Shown in pieces: positions 32,951 to 37,603 of a stretch of 64,000 nt of DNA. Both the position numbers and the translations under genes were made by a program. The notes below the pieces were generated by a model. That model made no database searches. It worked only from the letters and a program-made list of their open reading frames with translations, and was not told where the DNA came from. The stretch lies in assembly GCF_054482595.1 (NCBI RefSeq), contig NZ_CM137008.1. One strand, given 5' to 3'. Position 1 is the stretch's first letter. Each line of letters opens with the position of its first letter.

Positions 32951-33844
32951 CTACAGCGAAATACAGGTCCCCGCTTCGCCCGCCAGCGTCTCTTCAATTC
33001 GCGATAACGCCCCAATCCACGCGGGTTTACCACGGCTTCTGACATAACCACTCACCGCCGTTACCTTCGGCCCCATCGAACCATCGGCTTTGGCAAATGG
33101 CGCTAACTCATCCGGTGTGGCATGGCGAATGGCACGTTGCTGCGGCGTTCCCCAGTTTTCATATACCGCATCAGCATCGGTGAGGATCACCAGTCCATCG
33201 GCATTAATCTGCTCGGCGAGCAACGCAGCAGCGAGATCTTTATCAATCACCGCTTCACTCCCTGCCCCGTCTTCCGTCACAGGCACACCGCCGCCGCCAC
33301 TGCAAATCACCACATGCCCCTCTTTGAGCAACAACTCGATGGCTTCGCTGTCGAGAATTTTACGCGGTTGCGGAGACGCCACCACCCGGCGTAAATATTT
33401 ACCATCACGTTTCATCTGCCAGCCGTAAGCCGCTTCCAGTGCCTCTTGTTCTTCTGGCTGATAAACCGGACCAATAAATTTCTCTGGCTGCAAAAACGCC
33501 GGATCATCAGGCGAAACCTCAATGCGCGTCAGCACCGTCGTGACAGGCGGCATCTGCGGCTGTGCGCTCAAACTTTGCGCCAGCATATAGCCAATCATCC
33601 CCTGACTTTCCGCCACCAGCACATCCAGCGGATACGGTTCTACCTCTTTCCACGCCAGATTCTGCAATGCCAGCAGCCCCACCTGCGGCCCGTTGCCGTG
33701 AACAATCGCCAGCCGATAAGAACGGGCCAGCCGTGCCAGCGCGGGTACAGCACTGGCGATATTGCGATATTGATTTTCTGCCGTCAGCGCCTCACCGCGC
33801 TGAAGCAAGGCATTGCCCCCAAGAGCTACAACCAGTGTTTTCAT
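32951..33844 (-). CDS. ybcF: Carbamate kinase-like protein YbcF
   Basis: 297-aa ORF with an amino-acid kinase fold ([18 protein letters not shown]...). Confidence 0.85.
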
Positions 33845-34656
33845 GGTTTTCCTTGTAATAATTGTTGGCCAAGCCAGAACCCCAGCAGCGTATCTGCCCC
33901 TGACGTATGCCCCAGCGCCAGCAGCGAATCAATCGCAACAGCGGTACGTTTCGGGCAACTCAGAGCATGAGCAAAGTGCAGGAGTGGCGAGGCGAAATAT
34001 CCTTGCGCGGCATAACGTAAATAACTGACGCTCACCGCTGTGGTAACGAGTTGAAGATTGTCGGAACAGGCAAAAAACGGGCGACCGGCGCGCGCATGTA
34101 AAGCACCATAATACCAGGCCGCCAGCAGCATTCCGCTCAACGTGTCATCATGACTTGGCGTTAATCCGGGGCCTTTACCCAGCCAGTGCCGCCAGTCGGT
34201 CTTAACGCCATTGAGCGCGGCCTGAAAACAGTGACGAAACTGGCGTAATTCAGCGGGCAGCGGATCGCTTGCCGCCATCGCCAGTGGCCCGAAAAGTCCG
34301 GTTTCCTCCGCGCGTTGCATCCATGCAGCTGCAAGCGGTTGAGGATGCGAAGGCGGCGTAATACGCAGCAAACAATAACGCTGTGGCTGTGTAACCGTGA
34401 AACGCCCGAGGCGAATCCCTTGAGCCACAACCTGTGGTCGTTCATTGCCGCATAATCCACCGCATAACGCATCGAATTGCGCACGGCGAAGCACCCATCC
34501 TCCGGGGCCGAAACCACTACCCTGACGATGCAGCGTTAACAGTTCGCCGCTTTCCGTCATCAGGTTAATCGCCCGCCGCCACACTCCCGCTAACCGCCAG
34601 GACTGGCGATAATTCGGTGCGCTACTACTGGCAAGCAGAGGATGGATGATCGTCAT
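33841..34656 (-). CDS. ylbF: YlbF (DUF2877 family)
   Basis: ORF 33841..34779; start at Met42 ([11 protein letters not shown]...) gives 271 aa; overlaps the ybcF start by 4 bp. Confidence 0.7.
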
Positions 34657-34666
34657 TGCGCGTTCC

Positions 34667-35926
34667 TCAACCAATCCCCATGCTTTCAGCCAGTGCTTCC
34701 AGCGCCTGTTCAAAACACGCCAGCGGTGCCCGCACGGTGCCTGCGCCAATCTGCCCGATCCCCGCCTCTTTATGGGCAATACCGGTATTGATGAGTGGCG
34801 TAATGCCGGTTTCTACCACGCGACGAATGTCCAGCCCCAGGCACGCGCCCTGAAAATCCCAGCTTGGGATCTGCAACTGCATATTGCGTTCAAGGTAAAT
34901 TTCCGCCATCTCTTCAGATACCGCCCTGGCCGCTTCCATGCCACCCGCACCGACAAAGCGCGTTACGCCAGGCGCTGCGATCATTGCCGCACCTCCGATA
35001 CCAAAGGTTTCGGTAATCGCGCTATCGCCCATATCCGGGTTCGCCTGCTCCTGCGAGAAGCCGGTGAAAAACAGACCTTGCGGAGTGTTTACAGGCGCAG
35101 TAAACCAGCGTTCGCCCAGCCCGCTTACCCGAATCCCGAACATATTACCGTTGCGGGTCATTGCCGTGACGATGCTGCCTGCGCGGATCATCGCGCCAGC
35201 ATCCATCGCCGCCTTGCAGTAAGCCATCGCGAGGTTGAGGAAGAACTGATCGGTCACGCTGAGGAAATCCATCACTTCCGCGATGTGCTGTTTATCATGA
35301 TCGAGGCGAGCAATTTGTGGGGCCAGCGCACGCATTAACAGTGCTGAGGAAGCAATATTGCGTTGATGGAACTCATCGCCCATCGTAATGCCCTGCGCCA
35401 TCATCGCGGTAAGATCGATACCGCGCTCCATGCGCCCCAGCGCCGCGCTTAATACTGGCATTAACACATCGCGCATCCAGCGATGGCGAGTCAGGACATC
35501 TTCGCCGTAAGCGCCAAAACGCATCACTTTGCCGATACCTTCGTTGAGGTTGCAGTACGCCCGGTTGCCGTCGGTCACGTTCTCGACCACCAGCATCGGC
35601 ATACTGGCAGAAGTAATACCGCCCATTGGCCCGACGGCATTCACATGGTGACAAGGAATGAAGTTCACTTCCCCCTGCTCCAGTATTGCCAGCGCCTGCG
35701 CTTCATCTTTCGCCCAACCTTCGAACAGACATGCGCCCACGCACGCCCCTTTCATGGGTCCGGTCATCTCCTGCCAGCGCATTGGCGGCCCGGCGTGAAG
35801 CAGTGTTTTGCCCTGGTTTAGTTCGCTGATAAGTGAAGAAGCCGGTTGCACATCCAGCCAGTGTGGACGAGCGCGACGAATTTGTTCGATAACCGCAGCA
35901 TTGGCTTGCGCCACTGATGTAAACAT
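34667..35926 (-). CDS. ylbE: YlbE (DUF1116 family), intact 419-aa reading frame
   Basis: 419-aa uninterrupted ORF between fdrA and ylbF. Confidence 0.75.
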
Positions 35927-35935
35927 GGGAACCCC

Positions 35936-37603
35936 TTATTGCAAACGTTCTAATAAACGAGCCAGTTTTTTATTGCCGCCGGCGACTGGCGACCATTGGT
36001 AATGCACAACCGGTTTGCTGGCGCTTTGTAGCTCCAGCGCAAAACTGCGTAATCCGATGTTAATCACGGCGACGTTTTCCAGTAATGACGGTGTGTGTTG
36101 CTGTGCGGCAGGCGAGAGCGGATGAATTAACGCTGCCGCCAGCAAGGTGGCTTCCGGTAGCGAACTCACGACCGCAATCCCCGCATCTTCCAGCGTGGCG
36201 ATTTGCTGCGAGCGGCATTGCGGGTCACGTTCGGTACCTGTCACCGTGGCAATGGCGTACAGCGGTTGGCTGTCTGAACGCGCGGCACAGGCTTTTTGCC
36301 AGGCGCTCACCAGCGAGGCGGCAGGATCGGCGGTCGCGCCGAAGCCAATCACGACATCAAGTAGCAATACGCGCACTGACAGTTTAGCGCCGAGATCGGC
36401 AATTAACTGGTTGCGTAAGGTTGGGTCGATCATCGGATGGGGACGCCCGACGGTGTAGAAATCATCGCCAAGGTCAATAATCTGGTGACCATCGGCGTCG
36501 AGCATCATGCCGTGATGATGGGCATCATCGGCTTCCACGCCAAGGTGTCCGGCAAGTAATCCCGCCGCTTCGGCAGCCAGCGTACCGCCGGTATACAAAC
36601 CGCAAATAAATCCGCTGCTGACAGGTGCTATTGCGTTACGTCGCGCCGTGACGCGTGAAAGCAGGCAAGCCAGGCGTGCGGCCTCATCCAGCGAGGAGGC
36701 AAACCAGACATTCTCGTCGCGGGCCACCGCCGGGGTATAACCTAAAAACAGCGCCACCGTCGGTTTGCCGGTTGCTTTCATGGCATTAACAATTTTCAGA
36801 CGCACCGCTTCGGCAGGTGGTTTTGAAACAAATGCCAGCACTTCGCTTTTCTCGTCTGCACTGAGCATTTCCAGCGCCGTCAGCGCACTGATGCCGCCCA
36901 CTTCACGGCTGAGGTCGCGGCCGCCAAGGCCAATCGCGTGAGTAATTCCCTCCCCTGCCAGCGCAATCTGCGAGCACAGCTCCTGAATCCCGGTACCGGA
37001 AGCGCCAATGACGCCAATATTGCCTTCCGGCATCACGTTAGCAAAAGCCAGCGGCGTGGCGGCAATCATCGACGTACCGCAGTCCGGCCCCATCACCAGC
37101 AAGCCTTTTTCTCGCGCGCGGGTTTTAAGTTGGATTTCATCTTCCAGCGTGACGTTATCGGAGAACATCATCACGTTGAGGTTGCGATCCAGCGCCTGAT
37201 TCGCCAGCTCCGCCGCATACTCGCCAGCCACTGAAATCAGCGCCAGATTGGCATCGGGTAATTTCTGACAGGCACTGTCCCAGCGACGCACCTGCGTCAA
37301 GGACTGGCTGCTGCCTGCCCCCTGCGCCAGTTGTTTTAGCGCCTCTTCAAGCTGCTGCATAATCGCCTGCGCGATCCCCGCATCCGCCGCTTCGCTACGA
37401 ATTGCCACGCAAATATCGTTCGGCGTGGCGTTATTAAAATCGTCATGCCAGAAACCTGTGGTATCTAATAACGCTTTATTGGCGGGCGTACCCATCATTA
37501 CGGAAACATCATCAACATTTTCTGATTCGCTGAGTTTTCGTGAAATAATCATTAAACTGACCGAATCCTGAAAACACCCTTTTTTAATAAAGGCGTGGAT
37601 CAT
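35936..37603 (-). CDS. fdrA: FdrA (acyl-CoA synthetase / succinyl-CoA synthetase alpha-like)
   Basis: 555-aa ORF with a CoA-binding/ligase-like profile; first gene of the fdrA-ylbE-ylbF-ybcF cluster. Confidence 0.8.
   Translation of the reverse strand: MIHAFIKKGCFQDSVSLMIISRKLSESENVDDVSVMMGTPANKALLDTTGFWHDDFNNATPNDICVAIRSEAADAGIAQAIMQQLEEALKQLAQGAGSSQSLTQVRRWDSACQKLPDANLALISVAGEYAAELANQALDRNLNVMMFSDNVTLEDEIQLKTRAREKGLLVMGPDCGTSMIAATPLAFANVMPEGNIGVIGASGTGIQELCSQIALAGEGITHAIGLGGRDLSREVGGISALTALEMLSADEKSEVLAFVSKPPAEAVRLKIVNAMKATGKPTVALFLGYTPAVARDENVWFASSLDEAARLACLLSRVTARRNAIAPVSSGFICGLYTGGTLAAEAAGLLAGHLGVEADDAHHHGMMLDADGHQIIDLGDDFYTVGRPHPMIDPTLRNQLIADLGAKLSVRVLLLDVVIGFGATADPAASLVSAWQKACAARSDSQPLYAIATVTGTERDPQCRSQQIATLEDAGIAVVSSLPEATLLAAALIHPLSPAAQQHTPSLLENVAVINIGLRSFALELQSASKPVVHYQWSPVAGGNKKLARLLERLQ

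Follow-up and report, generated by a model that had tools for sequence, protein, structure and literature searches.

What does the four-gene block fdrA-ylbE-ylbF-ybcF, which lies next to the allantoin genes, encode, and does the copy considered here depart from what is known of Escherichia coli? The window analysed is a stretch of 64,000 nucleotides (nt) from contig NZ_CM137008.1 of the NCBI RefSeq assembly GCF_054482595.1. It belongs to an E. coli chromosome, with 4 mismatches over 44.6 kb against E. coli O157:H16 strain Santai, and is collinear, in reverse orientation, with 530-556 kb of K-12 MG1655 at about 98.1-98.4% identity. We consider it highly probable (about 95%) that these four genes are the allFGHK operon of E. 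coli, with which the oxamate branch of allantoin catabolism under anaerobic conditions ends. As such the locus is ordinary and has been described before, and the role of the operon was shown experimentally between 2022 and 2025.

The four genes and their products

Based on the list of open reading frames (ORFs) and direct translation, the four-gene block spans exactly positions 32951-37603 (4653 nt) on the minus strand. The first gene, fdrA (allF), is located at 35936-37603 and encodes 555 amino acids (aa), from ATG to TAA. It is followed by ylbE (allG) at 34667-35926 (419 aa, ATG to TGA, with no internal stop), ylbF (allH) at 33841-34656 (271 aa, ATG to TGA) and ybcF (allK) at 32951-33844 (297 aa, ATG to TAG). 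The junctions are a 9-nt spacer between fdrA and ylbE, a 10-nt spacer between ylbE and ylbF, and a 4-nt ATGA overlap between ylbF and ybcF. Some other frames were considered and rejected. A 312-aa form of ylbF starting at TTG extends the gene upstream with no gain in the Pfam match, and K-12 uses the 271-aa ATG form. The longest antisense ORFs, on the plus strand at 34646-35338 (230 aa) and 33446-33970 (174 aa), have no Pfam match and are not regarded as genes. No Rfam family reached threshold in a scan of the operon region.

AllF matches the NCBIfam model NF004760 (FdrA) with 1039 bits against a cut-off of 433, its Pfam domains are CoA_binding (193-287) and Ligase_CoA (336-491), and its residues 82-555 are near-identical to PDB entry 3DMY, deposited as 'Protein fdrA'. 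AllG matches PF06545 with 326.7 bits (cut-off 27) and AllH matches PF11392 with 100.1 bits (cut-off 25); these families were formerly domains of unknown function (DUF), DUF1116 and DUF2877, and are now called AllG and AllH by Pfam. For AllK, full-length matches over the curated cut-offs were obtained with the carbamate kinase equivalogs NF006926 (621 bits, cut-off 416) and TIGR00746 (427 bits, cut-off 358), which places it in the arcC family. AllF, AllG and AllH are named here as the subunits of oxamic transcarbamylase, AllF having a core similar to the alpha subunit of succinyl-CoA synthetase, and AllK as the catabolic carbamate kinase. A preliminary description of this DNA had proposed a tightly packed minus-strand operon for a CoA-ligase-like protein, two DUF proteins and a carbamate kinase, with an uninterrupted 419-aa ylbE; the translations, the end coordinates, the junctions and the Pfam and NCBIfam matches all agree with it.

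Assignment to the allFGHK operon

Could such a block be something other than the operon described in K-12? Compared with K-12 allFGHK (b0518, b4572, b0520 and b0521), the window has the same genes in the same order, with the same lengths, start and stop codons and junctions, and the same neighbours, with allDCE on one side and purK on the other. All four orthologues are intact, and the three transcarbamylase products fall into the expected families (FdrA, PF06545 and PF11392). The allD-allC-allE genes adjoin the operon, allD being divergent and 316 nt from allF, and the Santai genome, near-identical to the window, carries a complete allantoin regulon around the operon. The nucleotide identity to K-12 is between 97.7 and 99.05%. 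For allF, allG, allH and allK, respectively, there are 38, 12, 16 and 18 nucleotide substitutions and 10, 1, 6 and 2 aa changes, the identity being 97.7% for allF, 98.0% for allH and 98.0% for allK. Since the 4.65-kb stretch is matched in 5423 of 5426 complete E. coli genomes, the collection used for all counts below, the operon pattern is not due to chance; among the matches listed, 14 genomes are 100.0% identical to it.

The function of the operon has been established in K-12. Oxamic transcarbamylase consists of AllF, AllG and AllH and interconverts oxalurate plus inorganic phosphate (Pi) and carbamoyl phosphate plus oxamate (PMC11326118). The purified 6xHis-AllF/AllG/AllH-6xHis proteins catalyse the formation of oxalurate from oxamate and carbamoyl phosphate, with Km values of 1.3 mM (carbamoyl phosphate) and 36.9 mM (oxamate); the activity is saturated at 10 mM Mg2+ (PMC11326118). 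In vivo, the wild type produces 17.7 mM oxamate, the allH deletion 1.2 mM, and the single deletions of allF or allG none; in the triple mutant, the wild-type level is restored only by allFGH together, and no single gene rescues (PMC11326118). Carbamate kinase activity has been demonstrated for YbcF (AllK), and reverse transcription PCR indicated that fdrA-ylbE-ylbF-ybcF are co-transcribed (PMC9843812). Expression occurs under anaerobiosis with allantoin and requires AllS and ArcA, which both bind the promoter (PMC12535856).

By orthology, AllD, encoded beside the operon, would oxidise ureidoglycolate to oxalurate, which a complex of AllF, AllG and AllH would then split with Pi, in a Mg2+-dependent manner, into oxamate, to be excreted, and carbamoyl phosphate. 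AllK would transfer the phosphate to ADP, giving ATP and carbamate, and the latter would decompose to CO2 and NH3. Transcription from the allD-allF spacer would yield a single mRNA for all four genes, and it would be switched on by AllS as the allantoin signal and by ArcA as the anaerobiosis signal. The preliminary description had placed the cluster in the anaerobic allantoin branch, with a path from oxamate through carbamoyl phosphate to ATP. The branch was rightly chosen, and the starting point has to be corrected: the substrate is oxalurate, and oxamate is an end product (PMC11326118; PMC9843812). It had also called the assignment of the DUF proteins recent and incomplete, which is still true for what AllG and AllH each contribute and no longer so for the activity of AllFGH, its requirement in vivo, the co-transcription and the regulation.

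Several points weigh against this assignment, or at least against its details. The activities were shown with K-12 proteins and are carried over to the alleles of the window by orthology and synteny. The published assay was run in the reverse direction because oxalurate was unavailable, and the triple mutant was partly rescued by allFG (7%) or allGH (16%) (PMC11326118). The phosphate pocket suggested for AllF below is a proposal drawn from sequence alignment. Even so, the locus can be annotated with confidence.

The coding haplotype and the promoter region

Then, could the alleles of the window differ from those of K-12 in enzyme activity or regulation? This is improbable in our estimation, though there are some grounds for the idea. 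Only 19 of the 5426 genomes are at least 99% identical to the window over the 4.65-kb allFGHK stretch, AllF and AllH carry 10 and 6 aa changes, and nine substitutions fall in the fragments bound by AllS and ArcA. However, none of the changes affects a motif found invariant here or residue D296 of AllF (see below), the promoter allele is shared at 99% or more by 1982 genomes, and a divergence of about 2% is ordinary among E. coli lineages. The flanks behave alike: 34 genomes are at least 99% identical over allDCE-glxK and 353 over purEK-lpxH-ppiB, so the rarity, the one statistic of the locus that stands out, is accounted for by a mosaic haplotype or by a lineage of which few genomes have been sampled, and no new feature has to be assumed. 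The rare 4.65-kb haplotype was consequently rejected as an unusual signal and is taken as ordinary lineage variation. For ylbE alone, the count at the same threshold is 801 genomes. The rare coding haplotype extends over 32951-42500, which suggests a mosaic or a sparsely sampled lineage.

The divergent region between allD and allF (37604-37919, minus strand, 316 nt) holds the allF promoter and has the same length as in K-12, with 10 substitutions. The fragments bound upstream of allF by AllS (-203/-144) and ArcA (-142/-83) were defined by electrophoretic mobility shift assay (EMSA) in K-12 (PMC12535856). Their counterparts in the window are 37747-37806, with 6 substitutions, and 37686-37745, with 3 substitutions, and both may be bound. 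Nine of the 10 spacer substitutions are thus located inside the EMSA fragments (37686-37806). Within E. coli the promoter allele of the window is more frequent than that of K-12, which shares about 96.8% identity with it. Scans of 32700-38000 with consensus models gave 2 promoters against 3.4 expected and 3 terminators against 6.3 expected, that is, at or below chance, and neither a promoter nor a terminator was drawn from them.

At the other end, the convergent spacer between allK and purK (32813-32950, 138 nt) is the likely end of the operon. It contains two palindromes of the repetitive extragenic palindromic (REP) type: one at 32883-32919, which matches the REP consensus exactly where 0 such matches are expected by chance, and a second one at about 32831-32860. 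Inverted repeats were found in the spacer as well. No canonical terminator with a T-tract was found in this spacer. In K-12 the spacer is 194 nt long, and the window has one REP copy fewer, so the difference is one of REP copy number.

AllF and the transcarbamylase mechanism

Could FdrA be a genuine acyl-CoA synthetase, such as an oxamate:CoA ligase, with YlbE or YlbF alone acting as the transcarbamylase? The CoA_binding and Ligase_CoA domains, the weak matches to models of the succinate-CoA ligase alpha subunit, the RefSeq product name and a hypothesis from CanOE in 2012 (PMC3364942) all point that way. This explanation has already been largely refuted, and we regard it as very unlikely. The alpha-subunit models score 48-54 bits on AllF, below their cut-offs of 336-353. 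AllF 117-291 aligns collinearly with SucD 65-238 and shares with it three motifs (GPDCGT/GPNCPG, GASGTG/SRSGTL and GLGGRD/GIGGDP, respectively). The alignment stops at residue 238 of SucD, right before the GHAGA phosphohistidine loop, which is absent from AllF, and in a MAFFT alignment AllF has no histidine in the column of the GHAGA histidine. The ATP-grasp partner (beta subunit) that characterises succinyl-CoA synthetase was not found for AllF either. Since AllF lacks the histidine loop, has no ATP-grasp partner and stays far under the family cut-offs, 'acyl-CoA synthetase FdrA', as RefSeq calls it, is a misnomer.

For AllF as a subunit of oxamic transcarbamylase, a tentative mechanism can be suggested. 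The pocket of the succinyl-CoA-synthetase type in AllF might bind Pi or carbamoyl phosphate with no phosphohistidine involved, and oxalurate might undergo phosphorolysis, with no phosphoenzyme, much as the thioester does in the corresponding half-reaction of succinyl-CoA synthetase, while AllG and AllH might complete the active site by providing the substrate and Mg2+ site. This proposal, in which a phosphate pocket of AllF, a half-reaction like that of succinyl-CoA synthetase and a site completed by AllG and AllH are combined, is rather doubtful as it stands. Two further features of AllF bear on the pocket. D296Y is an activity-enhancing AllF variant (PMC8550087), and D296 falls exactly at the junction where the histidine loop would stand. 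The second Ligase_CoA domain (336-491) carries a G(R/K)PHPMIDP motif, which is common to the K-12 paralogue YahF and to a 62%-identical metagenomic homologue.

As for the other two subunits, the AlphaFold2 models have a predicted local distance difference test score (pLDDT) of 82.4 for AllG and 95.9 for AllH. Among 69 AllH homologues, the invariant columns are G160, G162, G164, T166, D170 and D171, followed by G249, S252, G253, D255 and G259. A profile of these homologues gave nothing under E=0.35 against all PDB sequences, and neither AllG nor AllH has a structural relative that is characterised.

The reading frame of ylbE

According to the preliminary description, ylbE is uninterrupted here and frameshifted in some reference strains. 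Is the intact gene then peculiar to this strain? In the current MG1655 RefSeq record (NC_000913.3), ylbE (b4572) is an intact coding sequence of 1260 nt, and the alignment that had been proposed as a check shows both proteins intact and one residue apart, with Q38 in the window and E38 in MG1655. Matches that cover at least 80% of the gene occur in 5417 of the 5426 genomes, and in 59 of 60 evenly spaced sampled records the alignment is exactly 1260 nt long.

The frameshift is found in the W3110 RefSeq record (NC_007779.1, 547581-548839), where ylbE is 1259 nt long and marked 'frameshifted'. In ylbE, W3110 and version 3 of MG1655 differ at two places only: a synonymous G114A and the loss of one G from a run of five (G5, gene positions 248-252), which is shortened to G4 with a stop at codon 87 as the result. 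They correspond to 547,694 A>G and 547,831 +G, at which resequencing studies found that MG1655 stocks differ from the older MG1655 reference. A paper in 2012 had already noted that the frameshift is absent from every other sequenced E. coli and is probably a sequencing error (PMC3364942). Consistent with this, a 100-nt probe for the G4 allele, compared with all the genomes, was perfectly matched in 4 of 5426, all of them K-12 (W3110 and strains CIT, LIM and CAR), and the other 36 records among the matches listed show 99.0% identity over a 101-nt span, that is, the extra G. The three K-12 records other than W3110 (CP026026-28) have the G4 allele at coordinates that agree (547781/547782), as if it had been taken over from an old reference.

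The window itself carries the G5 run, so it does not have the frameshift of the reference that had been named as the finding that would overturn the description, and an intact ylbE is the species norm. The frameshifted form appears to be an annotation artefact of a few K-12 records. The description was hence right that some references (W3110 and older MG1655 versions) are annotated as frameshifted, and the contrast it drew with them loses its interest now that the current MG1655 is intact. That the intact gene is strain-specific, having reverted or being a functional allele of its own, and dead in reference E. coli, as the W3110 and older MG1655 annotations would have it, can be practically dismissed given the intact 419-aa frame in the current MG1655 record and in resequenced MG1655 stocks, the near-universal matches at 80% coverage or more, the confinement of G4 to four K-12 records, and the loss of oxamate production upon deletion of allG in an MG1655 background, where the gene is thus functional. 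The K-12 ylbE "pseudogene" is therefore a matter of four K-12 records and not biology that needs interpretation.

Other features of the window

Elsewhere in the window, two genes are interrupted. In the fimbrial usher gene sfmD (22033-24642, minus strand) the internal stop is codon 172, and in nfrB (12456-14693, plus strand), for a glycosyltransferase activated by cyclic di-GMP and involved in phage N4 adsorption, it is codon 387; RefSeq annotates both as pseudogenes in Santai. In addition, a tRNA-Arg(tct) gene at 19533-19609, taken as argU, is located directly beside envY (18726-19487). In K-12, the DLP12 prophage (and ompT/appY) lies between argU and envY, so the argU site appears to be unoccupied in the lineage of the window.

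Comparison with known systems

Compared with the alpha subunit of succinyl-CoA synthetase and with ADP-forming acyl-CoA synthetases, AllF shares the glycine-rich motifs followed by a second Ligase_CoA domain. It differs from succinyl-CoA synthetase in lacking the GHAGA loop and the ATP-grasp partner and in having extra N- and C-terminal regions, and no such activity has been reported for it. The reaction is of the same type as that of the aspartate, ornithine and YgeW transcarbamylases, a reversible carbamoyl transfer between phosphate and a nitrogen acceptor. However, AllFGH has three different subunits and requires Mg2+, whereas the transcarbamylases of aspartate (ATCase) and of ornithine (OTCase) have a homotrimeric catalytic unit. 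No OTCace_N or OTCace Pfam domain was detected in AllF, AllG or AllH even at E<=10, and the authors of the AllFGH work also found no similarity to ATCase/OTCase (PMC11326118). AllFGH thus works as a transcarbamylase without belonging to the ATCase/OTCase superfamily. How a three-subunit enzyme unrelated to ATCase and OTCase carries out the transfer is a question about the enzyme family and not about this window. Of the family, 3CLQ (from Enterococcus faecalis) and 3DMY (FdrA) are structural-genomics entries of isolated subunits, and both were deposited under names without function ('Uncharacterized protein' and 'Protein fdrA', respectively).

K-12 has a paralogous module in the yahE-yahF-yahG...yahI-yahJ cluster (MG1655 335925-342507, outside the window), with the same three families and a carbamate-kinase-like gene. 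YahE belongs to the DUF2877/AllH family, YahG to the DUF1116/AllG family, and YahI is carbamate-kinase-like, while YahF is FdrA-like, 37% identical to AllF over 513 aa, and shares GPDCGT, GASGTG, GxGGRD and G(R/K)PHPMIDP with it. The yah cluster differs in its gene order (H-F-G), in the additional genes yahJ (for an amidohydrolase) and yahD (for an ankyrin protein), and in being unlinked to allantoin genes. The yah paralogues might be the reason why allFG or allGH partly rescued the triple mutant of the published work.

A more distant example is a metagenomic locus (Logan SRR32665175, 1464-8765), in which AllF (62% identical to that of the window), AllG and AllH are encoded together with a carbamate kinase, a major facilitator superfamily (MFS) transporter and a LysR regulator; no allantoin genes occur within its 14.9 kb. 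The Pfam list of this AllF adds an N-terminal domain, PF27530 (HMA_AllF_N), which the Pfam copy used did not report for the AllF of the window. A distant AllH homologue was found on a 3.2-kb contig, which is too short for gene context. The metagenomic locus shows that the linkage of AllF, AllG and AllH with a carbamate kinase, the same combination as in the allFGHK operon of the window, is conserved outside the E. coli locus.

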